Shown piece by piece: positions 6,436 through 53,878 of a DNA stretch of 64,000 nucleotides (position 1 is its first letter; the number at the start of each line of letters is the position of its first letter). The position numbers and the translations under genes are program-made. The stretch is from an uncultured Gemmatimonadales bacterium (GTDB lineage: Bacteria; Gemmatimonadota; Gemmatimonadetes; Gemmatimonadales; Gemmatimonadaceae): the NCBI GenBank assembly GCA_963701965.1, contig OY969695.1, positions 2,432,001 through 2,496,000 of the forward strand, given 5' to 3'. The notes below the pieces were generated by a model. It had not been told where the DNA came from, ran no database searches, and saw nothing but the letters and a program-made list of their open reading frames with translations.

Positions 6436-9011
6436 AACGCTGGTCGCTCCTGGCCCTCTGCCTCGCGGCACCGGTGAGCGCGCAGCGCGAGCCCGTGCTC
6501 GAGCAGATCGTGCTGCCGCACGCGTACTACTATCGCGAGATGTACCTCCCCCAGGTGACGAGCGGACCGAGCACGGTCACGTGGTCGCCCGATGGGCAGA
6601 GCGTGATCTACTCGATGCAGGGCTCGCTCTGGCGTCAGCGCCTGGGCACAACGGAAGCCGAGCAGCTGACGGCGGGTCCCGGGTACGACTTTCAGCCGGA
6701 CTGGTCGCCCGACGGCCGGTCGGTGGTCTACGTGTCCTATCGCGGCGACGCCGAGGAGCTGCGGTTGCTGGACCTGGCGAGCGGCGACGATCATCCGCTC
6801 ACGGTCAACGGCGCCGTCAACGTCGACCCGCGCTGGTCGCCCGACGGATCGCGCCTGGCGTTCGTGTCCACGGTCTATCAGGGCCGCTTTCACATCTACG
6901 TCGCGACCATCAAGACAGGACAGCTCGACGCCGTTCGCCGCGTCACCGAGGACCACGACAGTCATCTGCCGCGCTACTACTACTCGGTATTCGACCACTA
7001 CCTCTCACCGACGTGGTCGCCGGACGGCGCCGAGCTCCTGTTCGTCTCCAACCGCGGGCACGTGTGGGGCACGGGTGGTCTGTGGCGGGCGCCGGCCGAC
7101 AGCGGCCCGGCCGACCGCGCACGGCAGATCCCGGCGCAGCCGGGATCAGTCCAACCGACTTCGGATCTCGCGACGCGAAGCGTCGAGATCCGGAACGAAG
7201 AGACGGCCTGGAAGCCGCATCCCGACTGGTCGCGCGACGGGCATCGCGTAGTCTATAGCTCGTTCGCCGGCCGGCAGTGGAACCAGCTGTGGCTGACGAC
7301 GCCGAACGGCGACTTTCCCGTGCAGCTGACCTACGGCGACTTCGACGCCACGGTGCCCCGGTGGTCGCCGGACGGCGGCCGGATTGCGTTCATCGCCAAC
7401 GAGGGTGGCAACACATCGCTGCGCATCGTCGCCGTCCCGGGTGGTGCGGTCTCCATCGTCACGGCCAAGCAACGCCATTACAAGGGAGCGGTCGGCGTGC
7501 TCCGCGTCATGGTGCGCGATGCGACCGGCCATCCGATGCCTGGCCGCGTCTCGGTCTCGGGCCGTGGCGATCGCACCTACGCCCCGGACGACGCCTGGCG
7601 TTACGCCGACGACTCGTTCGACCGCAAAACGCGGCGCCTGGAGATCGGATACTTCCAGACCACCGGCGCGTCGGTGCTCACCGTTCCCGCCGAGAGCGTC
7701 ACCGTCGATGTGTCGCGCGGCCTCGAGTATCGTCCGGCGCATCGCCGCGTCGCCATCAAGCCCGGCGACACGACGACCGTGGTCGTGGGGCTCCCCCGTA
7801 TGGCCAACCTCCCGCCGGAGGGTTGGTACAGCGGCGACCTTCACGTGCACATGAACTACGGGGGCACGTATCGGAACACGACCGCGCATCTCGCCGAGCA
7901 GGCGCGCGCCGAGGACGTGCACGTCATCGAAGACTTGATCGTGAACAAGGAGGGGCGCATCCCCGACGTGGGGTCGTTCATTCCCGGCGGGCGCGCCGAT
8001 CCGGCGAGCGACGCCAACACGCTCATCGTCCACGGCCAGGAATTTCACACCAGCTACTGGGGCCACGCCGGCCTGTTGGGTCTTCGGTCGTCGCTGATCC
8101 TGCCCGGCTACGCCGCGTACGCGTCGACCCCGGTCGCGAGCCTCGTGCCCACCAACGCCGACGTCGCGGGCATGGCCCACGCCGACCGCGCGCTGCTTGG
8201 CTACGTGCACCCGTTCGACGTCTACCCCGATCCCGCGGATATGGGCACGGCGCTGACCGATGAGCTACCCGTCGATGTCGCTTTGGGCGCCGTAGACTAT
8301 ATGGAGATCGTCGGGTTCAGCGATCATTTGTCGACCGCCCGCGTATGGTATCAGCTGTTGAATTGCGGGTTTCGTCTCCCCGCGGGCGCGGGCACCGACG
8401 CGATGGCCAACTACGCGTCGCTCCGCGGGCCGGTCGGTCTCAACCGCGTCTTCGTCCACGCCGGCTCGGCTCTCTGGCACGGCGCCTGGCTCGACTCGCT
8501 CAAGGCCGGCCGCTCCTTCGCCACGAACGGCCCGCTCCTCACCCTCACGATCGACGGACACGCGATCGGCGATGAGATCAAGGTCGCCGGCCCGACGACG
8601 CTGCACATCCATGCGACGCTGGCATCGATCGTGAGCGTCGACCATTTCGAGCTCGTGGGCCCGAGCGGTGTCGTGGCCAGCGTGGCGCTGACGGGCGACC
8701 GCACGACGGCGACCGCGGACTGGACGGTGACCGACTCGACCAGCGCCTGGTATACGGTGCGCGCGTACGCCGATCACGCGGCCGATCCGGCGTATCCGAT
8801 CCTGGACACCTACCCGTTCGCGACGACGAGTCCCATCTACGTGACCGTCGCCAACCGGCCAATGCGCTCGCCGCGCGATGCCCAGTATTTCGCCGCCTGG
8901 ATCGCGCGGCTCGCGGCCGGCGCGCGGAACTACACCGGGTACAACACGCCTGCCGAGCGGGCGCATGTGCTGGCCCAACTCGACTCGGCCGCTGCCGTCT
9001 TTGGTCATTGA
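6432..9011 (+). CDS. Secreted TolB/PD40 beta-propeller + PHP-like (CehA/McbA-type) metallohydrolase
   Basis: Signal peptide, repeated WSPDG motifs, SGDLHVH, GQEFHT..GH, YVHP, GAGTD, SFATNGP. Confidence 0.8.
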   Translation: MKRWSLLALCLAAPVSAQREPVLEQIVLPHAYYYREMYLPQVTSGPSTVTWSPDGQSVIYSMQGSLWRQRLGTTEAEQLTAGPGYDFQPDWSPDGRSVVYVSYRGDAEELRLLDLASGDDHPLTVNGAVNVDPRWSPDGSRLAFVSTVYQGRFHIYVATIKTGQLDAVRRVTEDHDSHLPRYYYSVFDHYLSPTWSPDGAELLFVSNRGHVWGTGGLWRAPADSGPADRARQIPAQPGSVQPTSDLATRSVEIRNEETAWKPHPDWSRDGHRVVYSSFAGRQWNQLWLTTPNGDFPVQLTYGDFDATVPRWSPDGGRIAFIANEGGNTSLRIVAVPGGAVSIVTAKQRHYKGAVGVLRVMVRDATGHPMPGRVSVSGRGDRTYAPDDAWRYADDSFDRKTRRLEIGYFQTTGASVLTVPAESVTVDVSRGLEYRPAHRRVAIKPGDTTTVVVGLPRMANLPPEGWYSGDLHVHMNYGGTYRNTTAHLAEQARAEDVHVIEDLIVNKEGRIPDVGSFIPGGRADPASDANTLIVHGQEFHTSYWGHAGLLGLRSSLILPGYAAYASTPVASLVPTNADVAGMAHADRALLGYVHPFDVYPDPADMGTALTDELPVDVALGAVDYMEIVGFSDHLSTARVWYQLLNCGFRLPAGAGTDAMANYASLRGPVGLNRVFVHAGSALWHGAWLDSLKAGRSFATNGPLLTLTIDGHAIGDEIKVAGPTTLHIHATLASIVSVDHFELVGPSGVVASVALTGDRTTATADWTVTDSTSAWYTVRAYADHAADPAYPILDTYPFATTSPIYVTVANRPMRSPRDAQYFAAWIARLAAGARNYTGYNTPAERAHVLAQLDSAAAVFGH
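7126..7191 (+). repeat. Hairpin-linker-hairpin element, in-frame intragenic copy
   Basis: GATCCCGGC-GCA-GCCGGGATC, then AGTCCAACCGACT, then GGATCT(CG)CGACGC-GAA-GCGTCGAGATCC; 44/47 nt identical to the copies at 46528 and 46597. Confidence 0.9.
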
Positions 9012-9036
9012 TTTCGGTGTTTGTTCGGGTTATAAT
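9008..9036 (+). promoter_or_regulatory. Sigma70-type promoter for the sigma/S24 operon
   Basis: TTGATT (9008-13), 17 nt spacer, TATAAT (9031-36) in an AT-rich patch. Confidence 0.75.
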
Positions 9037-9093
9037 TCTCTCCCCCATCCGCCCCTGTCCGGGCGTGGTGTCATTTCAGAGAGGGAGAGCGAC

Positions 9094-9822
9094 GTGCGCG
9101 GCTGGCGGGAGGATGCGGTGCGGCCGCGGACGGAGCGAGTCGCCGAGAATGCGGCGGCGCTGGCGGATCGCGGGCTCATCGTCGCCATGCGATGCGGAGA
9201 TCGCGGGGCCTTAGCCGAGTTTTATCGCCGGTTTCGGCCGGTGCTCGTCGTGGCCGTTCGCCGGTTCACGTGGGGCGGGACGGATGATGCGCCGGGGGCA
9301 ATAGACGGCGAGGCAGTCGTGGAGGACGTGCTGACGGATGCGGCGATTCGGTTCGTCACGACGACGGCGGCGGTGCCCGGGTCGGTCGCCGGGTATCTCG
9401 TCCGGATGCTGCGCAATCGCGTGCTCAACGCCGTGCGGGCGCGCGATCGCGAGGCGCGCCGCGTCGACGAGGGCATGGGGCGTTCCGAGTACGCGGAGCG
9501 CACCAGTGCTGGTCCGGAGAGCGCGGATGCCGGGCTCATGCTGTCGTCATCGGCCGCGCCGGCCGTGGTGCGGCTGGCGGCGGCGCTCGACGCCGCGATG
9601 ACCGACGACGACCGGCTCGTCGCGACGTGGCTCGGGAACGGCGTCTCGCAGCTCGACATTGCCGAGTGGCTGGGCGTGAGCCACTCGGCGCTGTGCAAGC
9701 GGGTGAGCCGGTTGCGGGCGCGGCTGCGTCTGGTCGCCAATCGGCATTTGGCGGGCGCGAGCGCGGAGGACCGGCAGGTGTTGGACGCGGTATTGGGAGC
9801 GAGAGGAGGTGCGCATGAGTGA
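9094..9822 (+). CDS. ECF-type RNA polymerase sigma factor
   Basis: Region 2 (DRGLIVAMRCGDRGALAEFY..VEDV..GYLVRMLRNRVLN) and region 4 HTH (SQLDIAEWLGVSHSALCKRVSRLRARL); GTG follows a GAGGGAG RBS. Confidence 0.8.
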   Translation: MRGWREDAVRPRTERVAENAAALADRGLIVAMRCGDRGALAEFYRRFRPVLVVAVRRFTWGGTDDAPGAIDGEAVVEDVLTDAAIRFVTTTAAVPGSVAGYLVRMLRNRVLNAVRARDREARRVDEGMGRSEYAERTSAGPESADAGLMLSSSAAPAVVRLAAALDAAMTDDDRLVATWLGNGVSQLDIAEWLGVSHSALCKRVSRLRARLRLVANRHLAGASAEDRQVLDAVLGARGGAHE

Positions 9823-10546
9823 GCAAGGCGAGTTGTTTGATCCGTTAGCGCCGCCCAGCGCGGCGGCGCCGGGCGATGCGCTGCTCGCGCTCGTTGGTGA
9901 GGCATTGCCACCACCGCCCGACGAGCGGCCCTCGCGAGGCGAGCGCCGCTTTTGGGATTGGTACGCGCACCGAAGCCGCGGCCAACAGTCGCGAGAGGAC
10001 GCCCGAAACACCGAGTCCGGCGTGAGCGCCTTTGTCGAGCGCGTGTCCGCACGGCTCGCGTCGCTGGCCGCGCCACTGCGCCGGGTCGAGACCGCGGCGC
10101 TCCGCCATCCCGCCATCGTGGGAGGACCGGTGTCGAGTACACTCGCGCTCGCGCGCGCCGCCGGCGCGGCGCCGTTGGTCGAGGTCGGCGTCGCGGCCGG
10201 GAGTGGGCGCGAGATCTGGGATGAAGTGACGGACGCCTGGGTTCTGGTGCCGGAGGATCTGCCGTCCCACCGCTACGTGGCGATGCGGGTCACGGGCGAC
10301 AGCATGACACCGCTACTGCACTCCGACGATGTGGTGCTCATCGATCTTGACGATGGCGATACATCCGCGGGCGCGATCGTCGTCGCCCGCAACGCCGACG
10401 ACGGATACGTCGTGAAGCAGATCACCGCCAACGACGGTTTCGACATCGAGCTCGGTTCACTCAACCCCGATTACGCACCGTTGCACATCTCAGCAACGAG
10501 GAATCTAGTACTGGGTCGCGTCGTGCTCCGGTGGTGCGAGCACTGA
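9815..10546 (+). CDS. S24 (LexA/UmuD/CI-like) autopeptidase with a non-HTH N-terminal domain
   Basis: VAAG cleavage site, RVTGDSM Ser, VVKQ Lys, LGSLNPDY, VLGRV; AGGAGGT RBS; overlaps the sigma stop. Confidence 0.85.
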   Translation: MSEQGELFDPLAPPSAAAPGDALLALVGEALPPPPDERPSRGERRFWDWYAHRSRGQQSREDARNTESGVSAFVERVSARLASLAAPLRRVETAALRHPAIVGGPVSSTLALARAAGAAPLVEVGVAAGSGREIWDEVTDAWVLVPEDLPSHRYVAMRVTGDSMTPLLHSDDVVLIDLDDGDTSAGAIVVARNADDGYVVKQITANDGFDIELGSLNPDYAPLHISATRNLVLGRVVLRWCEH

Positions 10547-10642
10547 GCCTATCACGAATTCTGCACACTTTCGTCGTGCAAACCCTGACACCCCGAGCGG
10601 CATCTCATCGTACAGTTGTCAAGACCCCCACAGGGAGATGAG

Positions 10643-11056
10643 ATGCAGATGCGGTTTGCAAGCGGCGCCATGCTCAGGAGCGCGATGTTCAGGAGAGCCT
10701 TGCTCCCAGCGGCGCTGGTGGCATCGGTCGGATTCACCAATCGCGTACCGTCGACCGAGCCCGCCCCGATCGCGGGCCGGGTGATGGACCTGGTTGGCGA
10801 TGCGGTCCAGTTCGCGCACGTCCGGATCACCGATCAAATGACCGGCGCGGTCCTGACGACCCTCACATCATTGAACGGGAACTTCGTGATCGAGAATCTC
10901 TCCCGCGATCACCACTACAGCGTCGACGTCCGGTGTATCGGGTACGTGCCCCGCACGCTGACCGACGTGCAGCCCACCGCCGACGGCGCCGCGATCGCGG
11001 ACGTCATGATGGAACCGATCCCCCGGCGCGCAACGCCGCGTATCGCCAGTCTTTAG
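10643..11056 (+). CDS. Small secreted carboxypeptidase-regulatory-like domain protein
   Basis: Signal-like N-terminus; IAGRVMD..GDAVQFAHV..TSLNGNF..YSVDVRCIGY. Confidence 0.65.
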   Translation: MQMRFASGAMLRSAMFRRALLPAALVASVGFTNRVPSTEPAPIAGRVMDLVGDAVQFAHVRITDQMTGAVLTTLTSLNGNFVIENLSRDHHYSVDVRCIGYVPRTLTDVQPTADGAAIADVMMEPIPRRATPRIASL

Positions 11057-13022: not shown

Positions 13023-13039
13023 GCGATATAATTTAGGCT
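13023..13039. promoter_or_regulatory. Overlapping divergent -10 boxes (probable leaderless promoters)
   Basis: TATAAT 13027-32 lies 7 nt before ATG 13040; TAAATT (minus, 13035-30) lies 7 nt before ATG 13022. Confidence 0.6.
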
Positions 13040-14152: not shown

Positions 14153-14715
14153 AGCCCCAGCGCGGACGCTTCGGCGCGCATCGCGTCGATCACGAACTGG
14201 ATGTGCTCGTCCAGGTCGACGCCCAAATCCGCCGCACCCTGCACGACGTCCTCGCGGCTCACGCCGCGGGCAAAAGCTTTGTCCTTCATCTTCTTGCGAA
14301 CGGAACGCGCGTCGACGTCCTCGACGCGGCGCGAGGGCTTGACCAACGCGGTGGCGGTGATGAGACCGGTCAGCTCATCGACAGCGAACAGGGTCTTGGC
14401 CATGCGGGACGCCCGCGGCACGCCGGAATACCGCGCGTGACCGAGGATGGCCTCGAGGATGTCCTCGCCCACACCGCGGGAGCGGAGGACACCCACGCCC
14501 TCGGCCGGATGGCCTGCCGTCGGCGAGTGCTCGGCGTTGGGAAATCGCTCGTAGTCGAAATCGTGCAGCAGGCCGGCGAGCCCCCACCGCTCGGCGTCCT
14601 CGCCCCATTTGACCGCGTAGGCCCGCATCCCCGCCTCGACGGCGAGCATGTGCTTCCGCAGCGAGTCGCTCGCGGTGTACTCCTGCATGAGCGCTAACGC
14701 GTCCGGACGGTTCAT
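14149..14715 (-). CDS. HD-domain phosphohydrolase
   Basis: RKHMLAVE, LLHDFDYE, ILGH, VDELTG, KKMKDKAFARGV. Confidence 0.85.
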   Translation of the reverse strand: MNRPDALALMQEYTASDSLRKHMLAVEAGMRAYAVKWGEDAERWGLAGLLHDFDYERFPNAEHSPTAGHPAEGVGVLRSRGVGEDILEAILGHARYSGVPRASRMAKTLFAVDELTGLITATALVKPSRRVEDVDARSVRKKMKDKAFARGVSREDVVQGAADLGVDLDEHIQFVIDAMRAEASALGL

Positions 14716-15902: not shown

Positions 15903-15961
15903 ATTGGAGATGTTAACGAGTCCCCTGCCGGCGCGTCTGGATTAGAGAGAGGTTATCGATC

Positions 15962-33198: not shown

Positions 33199-34110
33199 AT
33201 GGCGAGCGGTTGGTGGCGGCGGCGGGCGACGCCGCTGGAGAATCGGGCCGGCGGCGCCGACCGGTGGTACCTCTGGCGCAGGCACCGCATCGCCTATGGC
33301 GTCCGCGGGAATGGATCGCCGCTCCTGCTCGTCCACGGGATCCACGCGGCGGCGTGGTCCTATGAGTGGCGGCTGGCGGCGGACGCGCTCGGGGCCCGGC
33401 ACACGGTCTACACGATCGACCTGCTGGGTTTCGGCCGGTCGGATCGCCCGGCGATCCGGTATTCGTCGGCCCTCTACGTCGACCTGCTGAGCGACGTCCT
33501 CCGCGACGTCGTCCGGGCGCCGTGCACGATGATCGCGGGTGCGTTGGGTGCCGCGTACGCGACGGCCGCGGCGGCACGCCATCCGGAACGCGTTGGCGCG
33601 TTGGTGCTGGTCGAGCCGGCCGGATTGACGCCGGGTACGCGGCGCGGCGGACGCTGGCGGACCATCCTGCGCCGCGCATTGTACGGACCGGTCGTCGGCG
33701 CGTCGTTGTTCCACGCCCAAACGCGCCGCTCGGCGCTCCGCCGCCGGTTTCGGCTGGCGTACGCGACCGAGGCGCGTGTAACGGACGACATGGTGGAGCA
33801 CTACCATGAGACCGCGCGGCAACCGGGCGCGCGGCATGCGCCGGCGGCGTGGGGGGCGTTCCGGCTGGACCTGGACGTGACCGCGGTCTGGCCGCGGCTC
33901 ATCCACCCCACGCTCATCGTGTGGGGCGCGCACCCGCACCACGCGCCATTAGCGGATTTGCGCGCGCTCCGCGCGGCCCGGCCCGCGGCTGACGCCGCGA
34001 TCATCGAAGGCGCGGGCGACCTCCCGCACGAGGAGTCGAGCGAGGATTTCGTCGAGGTGGTGGAGGCTTTTTTCAGCGGTGCTCGCCAGGACTCACCGGT
34101 GGTGCTTTAG
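33199..34110 (+). CDS. Alpha/beta hydrolase fold protein
   Basis: LLLVHGI, IDLLGFGRSDRP, PTLIVWG, LPHEE. Confidence 0.8.
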   Translation: MASGWWRRRATPLENRAGGADRWYLWRRHRIAYGVRGNGSPLLLVHGIHAAAWSYEWRLAADALGARHTVYTIDLLGFGRSDRPAIRYSSALYVDLLSDVLRDVVRAPCTMIAGALGAAYATAAAARHPERVGALVLVEPAGLTPGTRRGGRWRTILRRALYGPVVGASLFHAQTRRSALRRRFRLAYATEARVTDDMVEHYHETARQPGARHAPAAWGAFRLDLDVTAVWPRLIHPTLIVWGAHPHHAPLADLRALRAARPAADAAIIEGAGDLPHEESSEDFVEVVEAFFSGARQDSPVVL

Positions 34111-34178
34111 CAGGTGCTAGCGCACCTGCCAAAGCACCGTCGGTTGGATGGGCCGCGGCACTGCAACTCCGCGGGGCC
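34101..34178 (-). repeat. Hairpin-linker-hairpin element between convergent genes
   Basis: Minus strand: CCGCGG..GCA..CCGCGG, then ATCCAACCGAC, then GGTGCTTTGGCAGGTGC-GCTA-GCACCTGCTAAAGCACC. Confidence 0.7.
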
Positions 34179-42607: not shown

Positions 42608-42610
42608 GCG

Positions 42611-43537: not shown

Positions 43538-43589
43538 GGCGCACGAATATACATGAGTCCGCCCGCAGCGCGAGTTTAGTTTTGGTCAC

Positions 43590-46500
43590 ATGGCTCGCCG
43601 AACCAATGCGCTGACGCCGTTTCATCCGCTCGTCCAGCGCTGGTTCCGGGACACGCTCGGGAGCCCGAGCGCGCCGCAAGAGCGCGGCTGGCCCGCCATC
43701 GCGTTGGGCGAGCATACGCTGATTCTGGCGCCGACGGGCACCGGCAAGACGCTGGCGGCGTTTTTGTGGGAACTGAACGCGCTGATCGTCCGCGGGGCCG
43801 AGTCGCCCCTGCCGAACGCGGTCCAGATCCTCTACATCTCGCCCCTCAAGGCACTGGGCAATGATGTGCAGCGGAACCTCGACCGCCCGCTGGCCGACCT
43901 GCGCGCGCGATTCGCCGCGGCCGGCGAGACGTTTCCCGAGATCCGCGTCAATGTCCGGACGGGCGACACGTCGCCCTCGGCCCGCGCGCGGATGCTCCGG
44001 CGCACCCCGCACATTCTGATCACGACGCCCGAGTCCCTGCACATCTTGCTCACCACCGAGCGCGGCCGCACGATCTTCCCCGGCGTGCGCGCCGTCATCG
44101 TCGACGAGATTCACGCGGTCGCCGGCGGCAAGCGCGGCGCGCACCTCGCGCTCACGCTCGAGCGCCTCGATGCGCTGTGCCTCGGCGCCGGCTACAATGC
44201 GCCACAGCGGATCGGCCTCTCCGCCACGCAACGACCGCTCAATGAAGTCGCGCGCTTTCTCGGCGGCGCCGGCGATGACGGACGCTTTCGACCGGTCACC
44301 GTCGTGGACTGCGGACTCGTCAAGAAAATGGAGTTCACCGTGCAGTCGCCGGTGCCCGATCTCGGCGACGTCGGTGGGACGGTCTGGCCCGCCGTCACGG
44401 AGTTGCTCCTGGCGCGCATCCGCGAGGCCCGCACCACGCTCGTGTTCGTGAACAACCGCGGGCAGGCCGAGCGAGTGGCCGTGCGCATCAATGCGCTGGC
44501 CAACGAGGAGCCGGGCTCCGAGCTCGCCAGACCGTATCACGGGTCGCTGTCCAAAGAGCGACGCCTCGCGCTGGAGCGCGCGCTCAAGGCCGGCGAGCTC
44601 CGGGCGCTGGTCACCACCAGCGCGCTGGAGCTGGGCATCGACATCGGCTCCGTCGATCTCGTCGTCCAGATCCAAAGCCCCAAACGCGTCGCCGCCGCCG
44701 TGCAGCGCGCGGGCCGCGCCGGCCACTCGGTGGGCGACGTCAGTCGCGCGGTCTTCGTGCCGACGTTTCGCGATGACCTCATCGAGACGCTCGCCATCGT
44801 CGACGCGGCCCGGGAAGGCGACGTCGAGGCCACCGTCGTCCCGCAGAACGCGCTCGACGTGCTGGCGCAGGTCATCGTGGCCGTCACCTCCACGCCGATC
44901 GAGGGCACGACCGACGAAGCGCTGTATCAGCTCGTGCGCCGCGCCTACCCGTATCATCGCTTGCCCCGGGCGGCGTTCGATGAGACCCTCGCCATGCTCA
45001 GCGGCAAGTATCCGTCCGACGTGGCCGCCGAGCTGGAGCCGCGGCTCACGTGGGATCGCATCACCGGACGCGTCACGGGGTCGCGCGGCAGCCGCATGAC
45101 CGCGGTCATCTCCGGTGGCACCATCCCGGACCGGGGTCTCTATACTGTCAACCTTCCAGACCGCACGCGGCTCGGAGAGCTCGACGAGGAGTTCGTGCAC
45201 GAGTCGCGCGTCGGCGACGTGTTCCAACTCGGCTCCGCGACCTGGCGCATCGGGTCGATCGAGCACGATCGCGTCATCGTGACGCCGGCACCCGGCGCGC
45301 CGGCGCGGATGCCGTTCTGGCACGGCGAGTTCTCGACGCGCGGCGTCGCGGTCAGCCAGCGCGTCGGCGCGTTGCGCCGGGCGTTGACGGTGGCCGCGGA
45401 GACCGACGACGCCGCCTTCGCCGCCGCCAACGGCTGCGACGAGGCGTGCGCCCGCTCGGCGCGCGAATACATCGCGGCGCAACGCGCCGCGACCGGCATC
45501 GTCCCGGACGATCGCACGTTGGTGGTCGAGTGGTTCCGCGACGAAGTGGATTCGGTCCGCGTGGTGATCCATGCCAGCGTCGGCGGGCGCGTGACCGCGC
45601 CCTGGGGCATGGCATTGGCCCGGCGCGCGCGCGACCTCCTCGGCGTCAATGTCGCGGTGCAAACCAACGACGACGGCATCATGCTGCGCCTGCCGCCGCT
45701 CAACGGGCCGCCGCCCATCCGCGCGTTGCTGGCGCAGACGCCGGACGAGGTGGAGCGGGCCGTGCTCGACGAGGTGGGAACGACTCCGTTGTTCGGGGCG
45801 CGGTTCCGGATGAACGCGGCGCGCGCCCTCCTGCTGCCGCGGGGCACGGCGCGGCGGCGCATGCCCCTCTGGCTCCAACGACTCAAAGCCACCGATCTCC
45901 TGCAGGCCGTGCGGGCCTACCCCGAGTTTCCCATCCTCGTGGAGACCTATCGCGAAGTCCTGCGCAATGCGTTCGACATGGACGCGTTGACCGCTGTCGT
46001 CCGGGCGGTCGACGGCGGGCAGCTCGGGCTCCGCATCGTGGAGACGGACCGGCCGTCGCCCTTTGCGTCCGGGCTCTTGCTCGGCTTCGTGATGGACTGG
46101 TTGTACGCCGACGACACGCCGCGCGCCGAGCGGGCCGCGGCGCTGTTGGCCGTCGACCGGGGCATGCTCGACGACGTCATGGGAGTCGACGACACCGTCG
46201 ACGAGGCGACCATGCGGGCCATCGACAATGTGCTCGCCATGCGCCGGGGGACCGCGACCGGGCGGCAGGCGCGTACCGCGGACGAGTTGGCGCATCGGCT
46301 GGAGCGGGCCGGAGATCTGACGCGGGACGAGTTGGTCGCCCGGGAAGCGCCGGACTCGGGCGCACTGCGCGCGCTCCTCGCCTCGAGCCGCGTCGTCGTT
46401 GCCCGCGTCGGCGGGGACGGTAGCGACGGGAGCGCGGACGCCGAGCGGTATATCCTTGCCGAGTATCGCCCGCAATACGATACGGCGAGCGGCGGCGAAG

Positions 46501-48170
46501 GCGCGTCGATGCGCGCAGCGCGGCGAGAGATCCCGGCGCAGCCGGGATCAGTTCAACCGACTCTGGATCTCGCGTCGACGCGCGCAGCGCGACGAGAGAT
46601 CCCGGCGCAGCCGGGATCAGTTCAACCGACTCTGGATCTCGCGTCGACGCGCGCAGCGCGACGCGAGATTTTTGCTCGCTATCTCGCGCTCTCCGGCCCG
46701 GTGACGGTCAATGACGTAGCGGCACGCTATCCGTATCCGCGTCAGTGGATCGCCGCGCGCCTCGCCGAGTGGGAGCGCGCCGGCACGCTGGTGCGGGGCC
46801 GATTTCGGCCGGGCGTCGTCGAGCCGCAGTGGTGCTCCCGCCGCGTGGTGGACCGCGCGCGGCGGCGGGCGCTGGCGGCGCTCCGGGCCGAGATCGAAGC
46901 CACCGACCTCGCGACCTTCGCTGCGTTTCTCCAACGCTGGCAGCACATCGATCCCCGCGACCACCTCGATGGCGAGGCCGGCCTGGCGACGCTGCTGGAG
47001 CAGCTCGACGGTCTGGCCCGACCGGCCGCCGGCTGGGAGCGCGACTATCTCCCCTCCCGCCTCGCGCACTACGACCCCGCGTGGCTGGCGCGCCTCATGA
47101 GCGCGGGCACGCTCGTATGGGCCGGCGCGAACTTGGGCCGGATCCGGTTTTTCGAGCGCGGCGAAGGGGACCTCTGGTCCCGCGCCGTCGACGCGCCGCT
47201 ATCCGAGACCGCCGTCCAAGTGCGCGACACCCTCGCCCGCCTGGGCGCATCGTTCCTCGCCGATCTCGCGACAGAGACTGGCAAGACCCCCCTCAACGTC
47301 AAAGACGCGCTGCGGGAGCTGGTGGCGGCCGGCATCGCGACCAACGACACCGCCGAGGCCATGCGCGAGATCGTGCGGATGCCCGCGCTGCCGGGGCGCG
47401 CGCGGCGCGACGAGCCCGATCCCACGCGCTGGCTCCCCGCCGGCTTCACGCCGCGGCCCGTCGTGCAGCGTCGGGTCAGCGCCCGCCGGCTTCCCCGGTG
47501 GCAGCGCCCCGACCGTCCCGGCCGCGCCGCGGCCTCGGGTTGGATCGGCCGGTGGTCGTTGCTCGACACGCCCGGCACCCGCGGTCCCGCCCTCGACGAG
47601 GAGACCCGCGCGGCCGCGATCGCCGAGCGGTGGCTGGCGCGCTATGGCATCGTGACCCGCGACTGGTGGCGCCGCGAACGGCCTCCCGTGTCGTGGCGCG
47701 CGATCTATCGCGAGCTCCGGCGTCTCGAGCTCCGGGGCGAAGTCCGGCGCGGGTATTTCGTCACCGGCCTGGCCGGAGCGCAGTTCGCCGCGCCCGAGGC
47801 GGTCGAGCGGCTGCGCGCGGCCCGCGACGATCCCAATGCGCCGTTCGTGCTCATGGCCGCGAGCGACCCGGCCCATCCCGATGTCCTCCCGCGTCCCCGC
47901 GGCGCCAGCGCGCTCATCGTGACGCGGCGCGGGATCACGGTCATGACGGTCGAAGGCGCGGGACGGCGCGTGACCATCATGGCGCCGCTGACGGAGCCCG
48001 AAGTCGCCGGGATCGCCGCGCAGTTGGCGGCCCGACACCCGGGGCGGTCGGCGACGCGCGAGCTCGAGACCATCGACGGGCGCCCTGCGGCGACGAGTGC
48101 GCACGCGCCGGGGTTTCTGCGCGCGGGATTCCGGAACGACGGTCTCGCGCTCGCCTACCCGGTCGGTTGA
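43590..48170 (+). CDS. lhr: Lhr DEAD/H-box helicase, long form with C-terminal winged-helix/glycosylase-like region
   Basis: APTGTGKT, SPLKAL, TTPESL, DEIH, GLSAT, LELGIDIG, QRAGRAGH, GELDEEFVHE, RRGYFV..GAQFA. Confidence 0.93.
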   Translation: MARRTNALTPFHPLVQRWFRDTLGSPSAPQERGWPAIALGEHTLILAPTGTGKTLAAFLWELNALIVRGAESPLPNAVQILYISPLKALGNDVQRNLDRPLADLRARFAAAGETFPEIRVNVRTGDTSPSARARMLRRTPHILITTPESLHILLTTERGRTIFPGVRAVIVDEIHAVAGGKRGAHLALTLERLDALCLGAGYNAPQRIGLSATQRPLNEVARFLGGAGDDGRFRPVTVVDCGLVKKMEFTVQSPVPDLGDVGGTVWPAVTELLLARIREARTTLVFVNNRGQAERVAVRINALANEEPGSELARPYHGSLSKERRLALERALKAGELRALVTTSALELGIDIGSVDLVVQIQSPKRVAAAVQRAGRAGHSVGDVSRAVFVPTFRDDLIETLAIVDAAREGDVEATVVPQNALDVLAQVIVAVTSTPIEGTTDEALYQLVRRAYPYHRLPRAAFDETLAMLSGKYPSDVAAELEPRLTWDRITGRVTGSRGSRMTAVISGGTIPDRGLYTVNLPDRTRLGELDEEFVHESRVGDVFQLGSATWRIGSIEHDRVIVTPAPGAPARMPFWHGEFSTRGVAVSQRVGALRRALTVAAETDDAAFAAANGCDEACARSAREYIAAQRAATGIVPDDRTLVVEWFRDEVDSVRVVIHASVGGRVTAPWGMALARRARDLLGVNVAVQTNDDGIMLRLPPLNGPPPIRALLAQTPDEVERAVLDEVGTTPLFGARFRMNAARALLLPRGTARRRMPLWLQRLKATDLLQAVRAYPEFPILVETYREVLRNAFDMDALTAVVRAVDGGQLGLRIVETDRPSPFASGLLLGFVMDWLYADDTPRAERAAALLAVDRGMLDDVMGVDDTVDEATMRAIDNVLAMRRGTATGRQARTADELAHRLERAGDLTRDELVAREAPDSGALRALLASSRVVVARVGGDGSDGSADAERYILAEYRPQYDTASGGEGASMRAARREIPAQPGSVQPTLDLASTRAARREIPAQPGSVQPTLDLASTRAARREIFARYLALSGPVTVNDVAARYPYPRQWIAARLAEWERAGTLVRGRFRPGVVEPQWCSRRVVDRARRRALAALRAEIEATDLATFAAFLQRWQHIDPRDHLDGEAGLATLLEQLDGLARPAAGWERDYLPSRLAHYDPAWLARLMSAGTLVWAGANLGRIRFFERGEGDLWSRAVDAPLSETAVQVRDTLARLGASFLADLATETGKTPLNVKDALRELVAAGIATNDTAEAMREIVRMPALPGRARRDEPDPTRWLPAGFTPRPVVQRRVSARRLPRWQRPDRPGRAAASGWIGRWSLLDTPGTRGPALDEETRAAAIAERWLARYGIVTRDWWRRERPPVSWRAIYRELRRLELRGEVRRGYFVTGLAGAQFAAPEAVERLRAARDDPNAPFVLMAASDPAHPDVLPRPRGASALIVTRRGITVMTVEGAGRRVTIMAPLTEPEVAGIAAQLAARHPGRSATRELETIDGRPAATSAHAPGFLRAGFRNDGLALAYPVG
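46503..46669 (+). repeat. 69-bp tandem repeat (2.4 copies) of the hairpin-linker-hairpin element inside lhr
   Basis: Units 46503-571 and 46572-640, partial unit 46641-669; each encodes ASxRAARREIPAQPGSVQPTLDL; 11-bp inverted repeat at 46636-46 / 46659-69. Confidence 0.95.
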
Positions 48171-48194
48171 ACCAGGCTCCGCCTGCGCGGAACT
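48161..48194 (-). repeat. Partial copy of the element at the lhr stop
   Basis: Minus strand: GTTCCGC-GCAG-GCGGAGC, then GGTTCAACCGACC; second hairpin not clear. Confidence 0.6.
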
Positions 48195-48683
48195 CTACGC
48201 GGGCGGGACGAGGTTGCCGCAGACGAGCGGCGGCGCGCCCGCCGGCGCCGACTCCACCCGCACGAAATACTGGCCGTTCGTCGGAAAGCCCAGTGGGATG
48301 ATGGCATAGTCCGACACCCTCCCCGTCGTGTCGGCCTCCAACAGTCGATACACGCTTGGGGGGCCGAACACGCCGAGGTCCCGGTCGCATTTGCCCTGGT
48401 GCACGCGCCAGGCGTATACGCCAGGGCTCGCGCGGCGCACGTCGATCCGCACGCGGATCGAGTGGTTGTCCGACGCGCCCGCCGCCATCCAGGCGATCCC
48501 ATACGGACCAGCGGTGGTGTCGCCGGCGGTGTCCTCCGGGGACCACAACGTCGCGTTCCAGCGCGTAGTCGAGGGGGGGTCCGGCTGCGGCGTGACCGCG
48601 TGCCGCGCACGGCGCATGAGTCCGCAGCCGAGACCGGACACCGATGCGACGAAAGCGATCCATGGGGGGCACAATCGGAACAT
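48195..48683 (-). CDS. Hypothetical lipoprotein (Cu/Zn-SOD-like or CHRD-like fold possible)
   Basis: GLGC lipobox-like, YAWRVHQGKC..LVCGNL. Confidence 0.55.
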   Translation of the reverse strand: MFRLCPPWIAFVASVSGLGCGLMRRARHAVTPQPDPPSTTRWNATLWSPEDTAGDTTAGPYGIAWMAAGASDNHSIRVRIDVRRASPGVYAWRVHQGKCDRDLGVFGPPSVYRLLEADTTGRVSDYAIIPLGFPTNGQYFVRVESAPAGAPPLVCGNLVPPA

Positions 48684-48701
48684 GGGGAACAATATTACAG
48701 G

Positions 48702-49304
48702 GTGAGCGCCCGCCAATTCGACCGCGCGTATTTCGATCGCTGGTATCGCCACCCGGTGCATCGCGTGAAATCCGCAGGCGAGCTGTCGCGCGAAGTCGAG
48801 TTCGTGCTGCGCGCGACGGAACATATTCTCGGACGCGCCGTCCGGACGGTCCTCGACGTCGGCTGCGGCGAAGGCAACTGGTACCCGGTGCTAGCGGAGC
48901 GGCGTCCCGCGCTCCGCTACACGGGGGTCGACCCGAGCGAGTACGCGGTGCGCCAATGGACGGCGCGCCGCCACATCCGGCGCGGGTCGATCGGCGATCT
49001 CGGCCGCCTCGGTCTCGACGGCCCGTTCGACCTCATTATCTCGAGCGGCGTGTTGAACTACCTCACGCCCCGCGAGCTGACGCGCGGTTTGCGCGAGATC
49101 GCCGCGCTGCTCGGTGGCGTCGCCTATCTCGAGCTCTACACCGACGCGGACGCGGTGATCGGCGACACGCGCGACGCCCCGCGCCGCTCCGCGGCCTGGT
49201 ATCGCCGCGCGACGCGGCGCGCCGGCCTCGTCGCCTGCGGGCTCCATCTCTACGTCGGTTCGGAGATCGCGCCCGAGCTCGCGGAGCTGGAGCGGCCGCG
49301 GTAG
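48702..49304 (+). CDS. Class I SAM-dependent methyltransferase
   Basis: VLDVGCGEG, GVDPS, FDLII..VLNYL. Confidence 0.85.
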   Translation: MSARQFDRAYFDRWYRHPVHRVKSAGELSREVEFVLRATEHILGRAVRTVLDVGCGEGNWYPVLAERRPALRYTGVDPSEYAVRQWTARRHIRRGSIGDLGRLGLDGPFDLIISSGVLNYLTPRELTRGLREIAALLGGVAYLELYTDADAVIGDTRDAPRRSAAWYRRATRRAGLVACGLHLYVGSEIAPELAELERPR

Positions 49305-49633
49305 GTCGCCTCCACGGCGAGAGCGGCCGCGCTCCAGGCGAGCGCCATCGGGAGCGCCAGCGTCACCACGATCGGCACCGCGGCCGGCGCGTGCAGGATC
49401 GCGCCCACGGTGTGCGCGAGGTTCGCCAGCGGGCCGCGCACGGCGTCGAACACCAACCATCCGCCCACCGCGAGGCACGCCGCCACGGCGCTCCGCGCCG
49501 CTGGCGCGCGGGCCGGGCCGACGCGCCACGCCCACACGAACGCGAAAGCCGGAATTGCCCACCATCCAGCCACTCGCACCGCGGCCGCGAAGACCGCGGT
49601 CAGGGCCACGACGTCGATGAGCGCGGCGAGCAT
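49250..49633 (-). CDS. Hypothetical small membrane protein
   Basis: Several hydrophobic segments (AGWWAIP..) directly downstream of the acylase; 3' end overlaps the methyltransferase. Confidence 0.55.
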   Translation of the reverse strand: MLAALIDVVALTAVFAAAVRVAGWWAIPAFAFVWAWRVGPARAPAARSAVAACLAVGGWLVFDAVRGPLANLAHTVGAILHAPAAVPIVVTLALPMALAWSAAALAVEATYRGRSSSASSGAISEPT

Positions 49634-49641
49634 CGGTCGGA

Positions 49642-52038
49642 TTACCGGGTGCGATCGAATTCGAGGATCGCGATCGCGCCGTTGGACGCCGCTTCGTCGG
49701 GCGTCCGCGGCACGGCGATGGAGTCGAGCACACCGGCGGCCCAGCGCGGCAATCGGTCGGCGTAGCGCGGGCTCACGGGGTTGCCGGACTGGCCGCCGGG
49801 GTAGATGGCCCACGCCCGCACCGTCGGGCCCAGTTCGACGACCATGCGCCAACTGGGTCCGTGCACGCCCCGTTTGCCGAGCGGACTGACCGTCTCGGTC
49901 CCGCCGTCCACCGGGATACCGAGCCGCGAGAGCGCGGGGATCTCGAGCAGGTGGTAGATATGGACCGATCGCACCCGATCCCAGCGCCAGCCGCCGCCGT
50001 CGGGCGGCCCGTAGAGCCGGGTCACGTGCGTCAACGCCGCCCGCAGGCTCGCGGCCAGCACGGAATCGCGCGGCGCGTCCCACCACGCGCTCGTCGAGTC
50101 GCCGAGCAGCTCGCCCAACACCGCTTCGTTGGGGCGGACGGGCAATCGGCGCCACACGTGGTCCTGCAGCTGATCCATCGCCTCCTCGAACAGCACCGCG
50201 CGCGTATTCTCCCGCGTGTAGCGGCGGTCCCATTCGGCCAGCAGGCGCCCCGCTTCGCTGCCCCGCGCCGCGCGCAGGAAGAACGGCACGAAGAAGTCGG
50301 CGCGCGCGCTGCCGGGATCCGTCTGGAACCGGCGCATCGCGTCCGGCGTCACCGCCGAATCCGCGCGCAGCAGCGCATTGATGCGCATCGCGCGCCACGG
50401 CGGCTCCCAGTCCGCAGCCAGATAACCCGGTGACGCGGCCGGGTCGCTTGGCTCTTGGTTCGCCGAGGCCAAGAAGCCCTGCGGCGGGTTGATCGCGGTC
50501 GGCCAGGCGGCCACGGGTTCGTCGGCGCGCCAATCGCTGGCGGCCAATGCGCCATCGCGGATGACCGTGCCGAGATCGTCGCCGCCCCGCACCGGAAATC
50601 GCCCGTTCGAGCGAATGGCGATAGTCCCCGCGCGATCGGCGACGAGCATGTTCTGCGCCGGCACCAGAAACCCTTCCATGCCCCGCAGAAACTCCGCCAC
50701 GGTATGGGCGTGGGCCGCGTGGTCGAGCGCTGTGACGTTGTCGGATGGCTCCAGGGCCGTCCACCGCGTGGAAATCCAGTGTCCGCCAACGCGCCGCAGC
50801 GGCCCGCGGTGCGTGTAGCGCAGAGTGTCCGTCGCCAGCACCCGCCCCGACGGATCGCGATACGCCTCGACGTCGCGCTCGATGGGCCGCCACGCGCCAT
50901 CGACGCGATACCGCGTCGGCTGCACCGGATCGTCGACGGTCTCGGCGTATTCGTCCATGACGTCGGCGCCGGTATTCGTGAACGTCCACGCGATATCGCG
51001 ATTGAACCCAATGACGATGTTCGGCGATCCCGGTATGGTGACGCCGTACACGTCCATCTCCCCGGGCACGACGAGATGCGCCTCGTACCAGATCGAGGGC
51101 AACGTGAGATCGAGATGCGGATCGCCCGCCAGCAACGCGGCGCCGTTCCGCGTGCGGCGCGGCGCCACCGCCCAATTGTTGCTGCCAACGTCGTAGTGGG
51201 GCGCGTCGGGCGGCGGCGCGAAGGCGAAGCCGGGGAGCGTCGTGTCCGGCGCGCCCGGTGGCGGCAGGCGCCCGGGAAGCCACCGGGGTTCGGTGATCCC
51301 CGAACCGGCCGGCGGCGGGACGATCGGTTGCTGCAGGGGGCTATGGATCGGCAACAGCGCATCGGCCGCCACCGTCCCCACCCGCGCGGCGAGCGCGGTG
51401 CGCGCCGCTTCGTCGTCGCTCATTGCCAGCACGACGCTCATCCGGTTCAACAGATGCAGCGTGTTGATCGGCAACCAACGCACCGGCCGCCGCCCCAATA
51501 GATGGTATTCGAACGGCAGATCCTGGGGCTTCATCCGGGCGATCCACGTGTTGACCCCATCGGCGTAGGCGCGCGACGCCCGATAGGCCAACCCGGTGGT
51601 ATCCCACGACGCAACCTGTCGCTCCGCCGCTCGCGGCAGCCCGAGGGCGCGCGCCTCGCGGTCGAGCGGCAACGCGGCGGCGCCGAGCAACTCGGTGAGA
51701 TGACCACTCGCCGCCCGGGTCTGGATATCCAGTTGGAACAACCGGTCGCGCGCCACCACATAGCCCAGCGCCCGATACGCATCGAGCGTCGTATGGGCGA
51801 AGATGTGCGGCACGCCCCGCGTGTCGTAGAACACCCGCACCGACGAATCCAGCGTGCGCATCCGTCGCACCAGCGTGAATTCCGGAAGCTCGGCCCCCGG
51901 AGCGACCGACCACACGCCCGTCGCGGGATTGAGGAACACGCCGAGCGGGGGCAGCGGACCGAGTCGCGGCGCGCTGAGTCCCAGGGTCACGACGAGAACA
52001 GCGAGCGCGCCGGCGATGCGCCACGGTCGGCGGGGCAT
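49642..52038 (-). CDS. Penicillin acylase family (S45 Ntn-hydrolase)
   Basis: GVPHIFA, ARDRLFQLD, GSNNWAV autocleavage Ser, GDPHL, YPGGQSGNP. Confidence 0.92.
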   Translation of the reverse strand: MPRRPWRIAGALAVLVVTLGLSAPRLGPLPPLGVFLNPATGVWSVAPGAELPEFTLVRRMRTLDSSVRVFYDTRGVPHIFAHTTLDAYRALGYVVARDRLFQLDIQTRAASGHLTELLGAAALPLDREARALGLPRAAERQVASWDTTGLAYRASRAYADGVNTWIARMKPQDLPFEYHLLGRRPVRWLPINTLHLLNRMSVVLAMSDDEAARTALAARVGTVAADALLPIHSPLQQPIVPPPAGSGITEPRWLPGRLPPPGAPDTTLPGFAFAPPPDAPHYDVGSNNWAVAPRRTRNGAALLAGDPHLDLTLPSIWYEAHLVVPGEMDVYGVTIPGSPNIVIGFNRDIAWTFTNTGADVMDEYAETVDDPVQPTRYRVDGAWRPIERDVEAYRDPSGRVLATDTLRYTHRGPLRRVGGHWISTRWTALEPSDNVTALDHAAHAHTVAEFLRGMEGFLVPAQNMLVADRAGTIAIRSNGRFPVRGGDDLGTVIRDGALAASDWRADEPVAAWPTAINPPQGFLASANQEPSDPAASPGYLAADWEPPWRAMRINALLRADSAVTPDAMRRFQTDPGSARADFFVPFFLRAARGSEAGRLLAEWDRRYTRENTRAVLFEEAMDQLQDHVWRRLPVRPNEAVLGELLGDSTSAWWDAPRDSVLAASLRAALTHVTRLYGPPDGGGWRWDRVRSVHIYHLLEIPALSRLGIPVDGGTETVSPLGKRGVHGPSWRMVVELGPTVRAWAIYPGGQSGNPVSPRYADRLPRWAAGVLDSIAVPRTPDEAASNGAIAILEFDRTR

Positions 52039-52089
52039 GACACAAGTTGCCACGGTGCGCTCGCGACGGCGAGGCCCGTGGAGACGCCG

Positions 52090-53769
52090 TTACGGGTTCG
52101 GCGTCCGCGTCCGACGCAGCGAGTCCGCGGTGTCCCGCGGCGGGCGCACCGACACCGCGAGTCCCGGGTCCGGCTCGGAAGCCCGTGGAATCGGCGCCGC
52201 GCCAGGTTTCACGACGGCCGCCGTCATCGAATCGTGTTGCGGTTCGGCCGGCGGACGGCGGCGGCGGAGCTTGTGGTGCACCGGCGCCGCGGAGGCCACC
52301 GTCATGGTGTCGATCCGCGCCGGCGGCGGCGTCACCAGGGCAACGGACCGCGCGGTCCGCCCGCTCGGCGCCAGTGCCTCGATCGGCGGAGCCACGTATG
52401 GCGCCGCCGGATCCGGCGATGTCGCTGGCGGTGGGGCGGCGGGCGGTGACGCTTGCGGCGATGCCGGCGACGATGCCGCGGGCGGCGGGATGACCACCGG
52501 CGCCAGTCGCGCCGGCGTGGTCGGTGCGTTCGACCGGACCAGCTGCACCGTCAGCACGCTCGTCGCCAATGCGACGAACGCGCTGCAGATCACCGCGAGC
52601 CCCAGCAGACGCCGCCGATCCAACGCCGGACTGGGCACGCGGATGAACGTGTGCTGCGGGCGCGGCGGTACGGTCCGCGGCTCGCCCGGCGGTCCCGCCG
52701 TCGCCGGCTCGCTCCATCCGGCCGGCCGGCCTTTGACCCAGGCTTTGCGCCGCTCGATGCCGTCCCAGCGCCGCCGATCGCGCCCGCCGTATCCGTCGGC
52801 GCCACCCGTCGGCCCCGACACGCGCCGCACGGGCAAGCTCGGTCGAGGAAGCGGAACAGGACTCGACGGCCCCTCGCGCACGGCCGGCGCGCGGGACTCC
52901 GGCCGATACAGGGCGGCGAGCCCGGCGATCGGCGTCGCCAACGTGGGCACGCCTTTGGTCGCCGTACCGGTCCAGGGCTCCAACATGGCCGCGACGTCCA
53001 CCTGCACCCCGTGATCCAGCACTTCATGCACGGCCCGCTCGGGCTCCTGCGCCGCGATGGCCTCGCGCGCCGCCGCCCACGGCGCGCCAGGCACCGCGCC
53101 ACTGCACGCGCACCCGACGCGCGCCGCGAGATCAATGACGCACCAATGGCGCTTGGATACGTGATACGCGATTTCGGCGACGTAGTCGACGGACTCGGGT
53201 TCGGTCACGGCCTGCCCGCGCCCCTCGGCATAGACCCAATTCGGCGCCGGCACACCGCCCGGCAACGAGTAGAATCGGCGCCCATCGCGCGCGACCCGCT
53301 CGTCCATGGTCGTCGGTTGCTCGGTCGGTATGATGCCGCGCTTGGCGAGGCTCTTGAGCAGCGCCGCGGGCGAGGCGTACTTGTCGATGGCGGGATCCAC
53401 CGCGCCCGGACAGTCGCCGATGTACGTGACATGCAGCCCGTGCAGTCCCGCGCGGGCGCGGAGGTACCGCGCCGCGGCGACAGGCGGGGAGATGAACGGC
53501 AGGAGATTCGGCCGGAGGCTCCCGATCCGTCGCATCTTCTCGGCGACCCGGGGACAGGAGCACAGGATCAGCGCCTCGTCGCCGCGCGCCGCCAGCCGCT
53601 TGAGCGTCGCCTCGGCGATCAGCTCATCGCCCCAACTCGCCGGCACGGCCGCGGTGTAGCCCGCGGCCACGCACGCGTTGGCCAGCTGCACAGGCGTAGC
53701 CGGACGCGCCGCGAGAATCGCGTCCGCGCCGAGGATGACGACGGCCGGTGCTTGTTGCTGCTGGGACAA
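52090..53769 (-). CDS. Membrane protein with a degenerate [FeFe]-hydrogenase/Nar1-like Fe-S domain and Pro-rich tail
   Basis: ILCSCP, SPPVAAARY, YIGDCP, IDLAARVGCACSG; single TM (LLGLAVICSAFVALA) then Pro/Ala-rich region. Confidence 0.55.
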   Translation of the reverse strand: MSQQQQAPAVVILGADAILAARPATPVQLANACVAAGYTAAVPASWGDELIAEATLKRLAARGDEALILCSCPRVAEKMRRIGSLRPNLLPFISPPVAAARYLRARAGLHGLHVTYIGDCPGAVDPAIDKYASPAALLKSLAKRGIIPTEQPTTMDERVARDGRRFYSLPGGVPAPNWVYAEGRGQAVTEPESVDYVAEIAYHVSKRHWCVIDLAARVGCACSGAVPGAPWAAAREAIAAQEPERAVHEVLDHGVQVDVAAMLEPWTGTATKGVPTLATPIAGLAALYRPESRAPAVREGPSSPVPLPRPSLPVRRVSGPTGGADGYGGRDRRRWDGIERRKAWVKGRPAGWSEPATAGPPGEPRTVPPRPQHTFIRVPSPALDRRRLLGLAVICSAFVALATSVLTVQLVRSNAPTTPARLAPVVIPPPAASSPASPQASPPAAPPPATSPDPAAPYVAPPIEALAPSGRTARSVALVTPPPARIDTMTVASAAPVHHKLRRRRPPAEPQHDSMTAAVVKPGAAPIPRASEPDPGLAVSVRPPRDTADSLRRTRTPNP

Positions 53770-53808
53770 GGCGTTTTGAGGCTAGAGCCGTAAAGAGTGC
53801 AGCGGAGG

Positions 53809-53878
53809 AGCTCTCGGCGCAGCCGAGAGCTGTCCAACCGACTGCCTCTCACGGGTGCGTCAGCACCCAATGAGAGGC
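53809..53878 (+). repeat. Hairpin-linker-hairpin element, intergenic copy
   Basis: AGCTCTCGGC-GCA-GCCGAGAGCT, then GTCCAACCGACT, then GCCTCTCA(C)GGGTGC-GTCA-GCACCC(AA)TGAGAGGC. Confidence 0.85.

Follow-up and report, generated by a model that had tools for sequence, protein, structure and literature searches.

Tiny gene-less hairpin modules are known from the double-hairpin elements of fungal mitochondria, which are organellar and resemble the element described here, and small dispersed repeats (SDR), very small mobile repeats of 21–27 bases with conserved structure, some of them in frame in genes, were reportedly described from cyanobacteria by Elhai et al. in 2008. The GTAG/CGTC repetitive extragenic palindromic (REP) sequences, with the bacterial interspersed mosaic elements (BIMEs) and REPINs, share still more with our element: as far as the available text of the sources goes, they are multicopy, short, GC-rich hairpins that lie mostly at the 3′ ends of genes and between converging genes, their ends often supply TAG stops, they form tandem clusters, some copies lie in genes including DNA repair genes, and CGTC REPs are likewise without a known transposase (PMC3733652, PMC3116915, PMC8266576). 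The family that we describe here bears on how transposase-less repeats that are REP-like, like the Rickettsia palindromic elements (RPE) or like the yeast mitochondrial GC clusters spread. It was noticed in a stretch of 64,000 nucleotides from an uncultured Gemmatimonadales bacterium (G000:C1:2432001-2496000, the window), whose genome (G000) comprises 5.12 Mb with 67% G + C. The element is a real, REP/RPE-like repeat family that has not been described before, is restricted to one genus and is not a GTAG/CGTC REP, and in one subfamily an inner hairpin arm mirrors the end of the gene that it faces.

The element is gene-less and spans roughly 65 bases (60–76): a first hairpin is followed by the core GTYCAACCGAC and then by one or two further hairpins. 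Hairpin 1 consists of a 9-bp stem with a C-G closing pair and a 3-base loop, which reads GCA in 45 of the 76 canonical units. All six core sites listed in the initial annotation of the window are exact matches (Table 1). When one mismatch is allowed the window holds 8 matches, which is not above chance (shuffled mean 4.78; 9 of 100 shuffles reach 8). Genome-wide, GTYCAACCGAC was found 71 times, where a fifth-order Markov estimate predicts about 7 (GTCCAACCGAC, 43 vs. 3.7; GTTCAACCGAC, 28 vs. 3.4). The first core base, originally read as R, is corrected to G, because words starting with A stay near expectation (5 vs. 2.2 and 1 vs. 1.1). A hairpin lies upstream of 57 of the 77 exact RTYCAACCGAC matches, compared to 4% of random places, so the motif does not occur genome-wide at chance frequency without hairpins. 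AACCGAY is the near-invariant part of the core, and no other part is as constant.

Folding z-scores relative to shuffled sequences range from -4.8 to -6.7 for the copies at 7126, 34101, 46528, 46597, and 53809; the copy at 48161, noted as partial from the start, scores -0.4 and is indeed a remnant. In an alignment of 18 copies, 89.7% of the cells are paired (29–38% in slid registers, used as control) and two-sided changes occur in 19 of 28 pairs (0 of 500 shuffles), which bears out the observation that stems differ yet keep pairing: both hairpins covary. The mini-stem that had been proposed around CAACC in the linker shows no covariation: variant cores break it, and two-sided change is seen in none of the three pairs counted, the pair that had been called compensatory being a fourth. 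Stems are almost purely Watson-Crick (339 of 360 in hairpin 1 of G000), without a strand-specific excess of G-T pairs (p = 0.29, 0.27, and 0.07, none significant). In agreement with the initial annotation, which could not match the repeat to a named family, Rfam covariance models gave no match in the window at gathering score and none over element copies in 6 loci (E ≤ 1). The literature searched, with most subscription journals and ISfinder beyond reach, held no account of a GTYCAACCGAC repeat family or of such mirroring in bacterial repeats.

Three subfamilies differ downstream of the core. The GATC subfamily has a 63-base unit and occupies 22 loci in G000, with no member among 52 classified elements in relatives. 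The gene-end subfamily, characterized by CTAG and often a T-rich loop, is present in the genomes G000, G002, G003, and G005. The three-hairpin subfamily contains a constant middle hairpin, is the main form in relatives (38 of 52 classified elements), and its left arms often mismatch their partner. A logo of the left end in 47 G000 copies reads C-T-R-G (26, 25, 42, and 42 of 47); its G belongs to the stem. Terminal inverted repeats were not found; instead, similar words stand in direct orientation at the two ends, each of which pairs with an internal arm. These imperfect 4–5-base words map to one host word at several sites, the relatives being too distant to fix the ends. The core is almost never overwritten: 46 of 49 hairpin-1-like stems have a core within one mismatch, and two of the other three have a recognizable one.

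The ends of host genes are mirrored inside the element. At 23 loci, the core is followed within 15–46 bases by the stop of a gene facing it, and a mirror was scored if at least 7 of the gene's final bases recur in the spacer after the core. This is the case at 17 of the 23 loci (3.5 in shuffled sets; 0 of 5000), where the post-core bases repeat the last 8–11 bases with the stop codon, giving on the gene strand the order host end, hairpin, inverted host end, core. The mirrored codons include those of conserved C-termini such as Y-L-R-P-V-D-Y-stop, V/L-I-stop, G-Y-W-F-stop, and the GroEL tail G-G-M-Y-stop. For Y-L-R-P-V-D-Y-stop the codons differ in G003, and the G000 spacer carries the G000 codons. 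Another clear mirrored end is K-H-G-N-I-P-L-stop, which we take to be the conserved end of acyl-CoA carboxylase beta subunits. At the 45 of 67 loci that passed a register filter, pairing between the foot of the last hairpin and locus-specific flank is seen at positions +2, +3, and +4 after the core in 21, 26, and 34 cases (shuffled 12, 12, and 14); position +1 is at chance (11 vs. 11.1), and the mirror ends one base before the core.

The trait separates the subfamilies. For 10 of 12 T-loop copies the mirror holds at 34 of 40 pairs (13.5 shuffled, 0 of 10000), with 10 different spacers of 4–11 bases, none shared by two sister copies. GATC copies (20 of 22) show no mirror beyond their fixed word, with 30 of 79 pairs against 29.1 shuffled. 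The outer arms are partly host DNA. Compared with the empty ortholog, the last 8 paired bases give 100 of 208 matches (63.8 shuffled; 26 pairs, 0 of 10000), and the first 5 bases of hairpin 1 give 58 of 120 (42.1 shuffled; 24 pairs, 10 of 10000). Because this match is about half, vs. about 75% in the flank proper, only part of the outer arm is host.

Two models of the element were used to count copies. In model R1 the second helix was out of register (31% paired), so that its counts rest on sequence and hairpin 1; the corrected model R2 yields 94 matches in G000 at E ≤ 0.05. The curated G000 set, which adds variants from a motif-plus-hairpin scan, comprises 108 units at 72 loci, 58 of them single and 14 arrays of 2–8 units with periods of 62–69 bases. 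Seven doubtful loci were dropped, leaving 65 secure loci for orientation tests, and a candidate at 346146 was rejected as the back strand of a tRNA. The other five genomes of the genus contain 65, 12, 11, 11, and 9 matches (model R1). Relatives are about 70–80% identical in DNA, and all genomes except G000 are drafts, 67–95% complete. Outside the genus, one weak match each was found in 2 of 150 genomes of the phylum (31 candidates scored per genome), and related hairpin-spacer repeats occur in 3 of 40 family genomes (G023, G183, and G180); some family tallies include the unpublished genomes G012 or G188, on which no conclusion depends. Viral contigs gave no matches, and the 8 metagenome matches all have flanks aligning to G000.

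Among the sites listed, orthologous positions are mostly empty in the other genome within tight synteny, and the element has therefore moved. A few insertions are common to two or three species. Different subfamilies lie at the same spot at at least two sites (L162 vs. 4812817; L113 vs. L165). The element is likely a small, selfish, non-autonomous mobile element; filled and empty orthologous sites, in-frame copies and the lack of an Rfam match thus favor what the initial annotation had suggested, a non-autonomous REP/RPE-like mobile element. In-frame copies in proteins, arrays of 2–8 units and host DNA in the outer arms had escaped that annotation.

Of the 65 loci, 17 are inside gene calls (15 on the sense strand), one of which, at 3692428, is probably a wrong call; among the 48 others, 17 lie between converging and 3 between diverging genes, compared to a genome background of 14.7% for each arrangement. 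When in-gene copies of relatives were compared with the G000 proteins, the frame was kept in 9 of 10. The tenth (L166 near 5167, G003) breaks the frame of a kinase-like gene; its assembly has another frameshift, unrelated to the element, and this may be an assembly error. A three-hairpin copy is situated between the 23S and 5S rRNA genes (L314:4740-4803, equal to G000:C1:340740-340803).

With moderate confidence, we read these genus-restricted repeats, gained and lost at many sites, as likely spreading selfishly and non-autonomously, and the gene-end mirror as likely arising by copying from arm to arm after the element has landed. The observed basis consists of sites filled in one genome and empty in another, of copies located at stop codons or in frame within genes, of partly host outer arms, of locus-specific complementary inner arms in the gene-end subfamily, and of compensatory change in resident copies. 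The last is seen at one orthologous insertion, where G004 and G003 differ by a compensatory pair in hairpin 3. At a site common to G002 and G005, the spacers track the synonymous codons that the respective genome uses for G-Y-W-F-stop (all but one base in G005, 8 of 10 in G002), which points to arm-to-arm copying after insertion. The mirrorless GATC subfamily, presumably younger since it is found in G000 only, likewise points to change after insertion. Almost purely Watson-Crick stems without a significant G-T excess fit DNA copying better than RNA selection, and template switching is described, in the available part of the source, as perfecting hairpins in one step and giving inverted copies (PMC10710096).

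In the course of events that we propose, the mobile form would be a folded single DNA strand bearing C-GNA-G loops, of which a protein would recognize hairpin 1 and the unpaired core. Entry would take place at 4–5-base microhomologies (CTAG stop codons; GATC, GAGC, or GCGC) and mark both ends with similar short words; insertions that break the frame within genes would be purged. During replication, the nascent strand could then fold back at the terminal hairpin and copy a few flank bases into the free spacer after the core by template switching; the reverse change, from element into flank, would be purged, since the flank codes for protein. Arrays may form by local duplication between the two end microhomologies.

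Several points weigh against copying after insertion. No mover was found for the recognition and entry steps. Units inside arrays have the same spacer as the terminal unit, without any rewriting to suit their new neighbor even where diverged, which fits copying at insertion better. The core is spared, though a blind copying error would not respect it unless it were selected, and the element may have inserted independently in G002 and G005 at their common site. Finally, the element ends are not fixed exactly, because the relatives are only about 70–80% identical.

The mirror might instead be written at insertion, which we judge unlikely, if the most serious of the alternatives. Here a nicked host strand ending at the stop codon would prime on the element, fold back at hairpin 2, copy 4–11 flank bases and rejoin at the core, and could need only host repair enzymes and no dedicated transposase; Ku-like and LigD-like motifs are present in G000 (regular-expression matches only). 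The order of segments on the gene strand is that expected from fold-back synthesis. Spacer lengths of 4–11 bases among sister copies, a mirror that ends one base before the core with +1 at chance, the spared core and the unrewritten units inside arrays also agree with it. It is opposed by the 20 GATC-type copies tested, which are without a mirror, and by the compensatory change in an orthologous resident copy, from which arms are corrected later too.

A further reading is more doubtful still: a self-reprogramming 65-base mobile DNA that rewrites its targeting arm at each jump by copying a host gene end, and whose two host-element hairpins let an enzyme insert and excise it by single strand exchange, as one case of a wider, so far undescribed class of gene-end-mirroring repeats.

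The search for a mover turned up no enzyme linked to the element. The proposed link to an HUH or REP-associated tyrosine transposase (RAYT) is not supported: Y1/RAYT genes (PF01797) were found in none of the six genus genomes (drafts 67–95% complete apart from G000; the control was found in 6 of 14), no unpaired GTAG/CGTC tag occurs in 47 G000 copies or 52 copies of relatives, and orientation shows no bias to either replichore: when a weak GC skew is used to place origin and terminus, 30 of the 65 loci fall on the leading strand (p = 0.62). A Y1 motif scan of the gene calls found none, and three Y1 loci in G023 and G069 have no convincing element copy beside them. The IS91 Y2 domain (PF04986) gave no match in five genomes, with a control that was silent everywhere. 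Tyrosine recombinase genes are present, none adjoining a copy. The recurrent neighbors among 527 flanking proteins and a Pfam search of 60 of 89 genes around arrays gave ordinary genes and no mobility enzyme. A mobile gene could be missing from the relatives because these genomes are drafts.

Candidates considered and rejected were IS110 (in 3 of 5 genomes, never beside copies), reverse transcriptases (only in G000, not beside copies, resembling group II intron proteins), and a GIY-YIG/UVR gene, which of the four genomes examined has nearby copies in G000 and G003 but none in G002 and G005 and which is carried by 39 of 40 genomes of the family. Integron attC sites, group II intron ends and known ribozymes were judged by eye from their motifs and set aside, with no Rfam support. 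The region G000:C1:238000-255000 (L173, L176, L178, L179) contains IS110 genes and group II intron-like reverse transcriptase genes, two of each and one of them broken, and is possibly foreign DNA. In G023, a Y1/RAYT-type gene has its own upstream tandem repeat, unrelated to the element (L239:957-1130). A lone hairpin-1-like stem in G003 (L276), downstream of a small gene after the GIY-YIG gene, stands where G000 has a 4-unit array, and may be a deletion remnant.

These results bear on a guide-directed element, an explanation to which we give little credence. Its inner arms would pair with the target halves, a single strand exchange at the four-way junction would insert a single-stranded circle, and the reverse between the terminal hairpins would excise it, as in IS608 or integron cassettes. 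Both outer arms are partly host-derived, each subfamily lies at host words matching its own inner arm, and IS200/IS605 and some REPs are described, in the part of the source available, as choosing cleavage sites by DNA-DNA guide pairing (PMC8266576). Inherited guides are nevertheless unlikely, because all 10 T-loop spacers differ and no two sister copies have the same one. The mismatched left arms of the three-hairpin subfamily, the even distribution over the replichores, and the lack of Y1, of Y2 (silent control) and of a tyrosine recombinase or IS110 gene beside a copy argue against it as well.

The initial annotation had left open whether the repeat is a mobile element or a structured RNA; the former stands, and the latter is weakened by nearly pure Watson-Crick stems without G-T excess on either strand. 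As an RNA element, its 3′-end hairpins would be selected to protect or terminate transcripts, and selection would keep the inner arm complementary to the coding flank. The enrichment between converging genes, terminal array units that are perfectly paired while inner units decay, and several insertions common to two or three species would fit. We consider it improbable, as the mRNA strand shows no G-U tolerance (G-T pairs of the mirror region number 7 for the core strand and 1 for the gene strand, p = 0.07), the hairpin is not followed by a U-tract, the stem contains the stop codon, most of the orthologous sites listed are empty, and Rfam gives no match.

Least probable is descent from the repeat arrays flanking four-helix-bundle genes (23S rRNA intervening-sequence, PF05635), with that protein as present or past mover: these genes usually lie between inverted short-unit arrays in the family, and in G183, of another genus, inverted GNA-hairpin arrays with an AACCGAC-containing spacer flank one on both sides. 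Of 30 such loci, however, just one resembles the element. A search of five genomes of the genus found PF05635 in a single one, and not in G000, with no element adjoining that gene; in the family it occurs in 51 of 61 genomes, most of which are without the element.

Separately from the question of descent, most PF05635 genes at L243-L272 lie between inverted arrays whose units are short (mostly 7 bases) and vary by locus, a REPtron-like layout of which no account was found in the literature searched. The arrays on both sides of the G183 gene (L234:1380-2100) have AACCG(AC) spacers, and their unit is also dispersed in that genome (L229, L232). In G023, a related composite repeat, sometimes tandem, combines a different spacer with additional hairpin modules (L228, L231, L233, L235, L238).

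Within the window, copy 1 contributes about 20 in-frame codons to its host protein and copies 3 and 4 contribute 2 × 23 codons to Lhr, none of which are present in the orthologs (Table 1). Copy 2 repeats, in the 10 bases that follow its core, 9 of the final 10 bases of the facing gene. Across the genome, several copies are located in DNA repair genes or next to them: an in-frame copy in Ada/AlkA, an antisense one in Ogt, those in Lhr, and others near fpg and the GIY-YIG/UVR gene. A 4-unit array lies antisense in an ImuB-like gene, which has a one-base frameshift just outside the array (about G000:C1:2275190) that may be an assembly error. REPs have likewise been remarked in DNA repair genes, according to the portion of the account available (PMC3733652).

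Table 1. Element copies and their host genes in the window (window positions unless G000:C1 is given).
Feature	Position	Strand	Core	Remarks
PD40/TolB-like propeller protein gene	6432..9011	+		859 aa; host of copy 1
Copy 1, hairpin 1	7127..7147	+		9-bp stem, GCA loop
Copy 1, core	7149..7159	+	7149-7159	GTCCAACCGAC
Copy 1, hairpin 2	7160..7194	+		Outer arm ends in host codons E-I-R-N, also in orthologs without the element
Alpha/beta hydrolase gene	33199..34110	+		Last codons and TAG stop within outer arm of copy 2
Copy 2, gene-end type	34101..34174	-	34139-34149	Perfect hairpin 2 (34101-34138), decayed hairpin 1
Lhr-type DEAD/H helicase gene	43590..48170	+		1526 aa; host of copies 3 and 4, in frame
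Copy 3	46529..46597	+	46551	First unit of 69-base tandem pair (23 codons) inside Lhr
Copy 4	46598..46669	+	46620	Second unit of Lhr pair; outer arm encodes A-R-R-E-I, kept in empty orthologs
Copy 5	48162..48198	-	48162-48172	Remnant at Lhr stop codon: hairpin 1 and core, without second hairpin
Copy 6	53809..53878	+	53832	Intergenic, two hairpins
Copies in or beside repair genes	G000:C1 2731652, 2732762, 2274950-2275139, 4078056-4078254; window 46529-46669

The family supplies dozens of filled and empty sites, with three subfamilies sharply split by the mirror trait, and its fixed unpaired core is a possible bait for the missing protein. The element writes peptides of 20–25 residues into conserved proteins, including DNA repair enzymes. 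If the mirror is a by-product of replication, it would be a clean natural record of bacterial template switching; if it forms at insertion, it would represent new mobility chemistry, and a self-reprogramming element would be a minimal one whose mover is of a new kind.

Compared with known systems, the element differs from REPs, considered here by their described features and not by listed REP consensus sequences, in having no GTAG/CGTC tag and no Y1 gene found in the genus. Its unit consists of two or three co-oriented hairpins around an unpaired core instead of a single 20–40-base palindrome or inverted pair, and its inner arm mirrors host DNA, which the available text of the sources does not describe for REPs (PMC3733652, PMC3116915, PMC8266576). 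Unlike in a REPtron or REPIN, no RAYT is flanked by element copies, and none of the 72 loci has an inverted two-REP unit or an opposite-strand copy within 1.4 kb. Unlike a miniature inverted-repeat transposable element (MITE), it lacks terminal inverted repeats, and it differs from non-autonomous IS200/IS605 elements in that no Y1 was found in six genus genomes and no fork orientation bias is seen (30 of 65). Tolerance of frame-breaking copies, a trait of self-splicing or self-excising introns, would rest on the one in-gene copy in ten that breaks the frame, in the assembly with an unrelated frameshift.

About a quarter of the element copies lie in genes. Rickettsia RPEs are, by the accessible description and not by sequence, also palindromic repeats in frame in unrelated proteins, read as extra peptide and without a known mover, but they are about 150 bases long vs. 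60–76 and belong to another phylum (PMC10969869). The yeast mitochondrial GC clusters, equally compared by description, consist of very small hairpin modules that carry no gene, show short target repeats, merge and shuffle, form tandem arrays and have an unexplained mechanism; they are organellar, and mirrored host ends are not reported in the available part of the source (PMC4478555). Quasi-palindrome template-switch mutation, as far as its available description extends, shares the one-step copying of arms, the Watson-Crick-perfect stems and the short inverted copies of nearby DNA, but is a mutational process and not an element; here it would recur at one family and stop at a protected core (PMC10710096).

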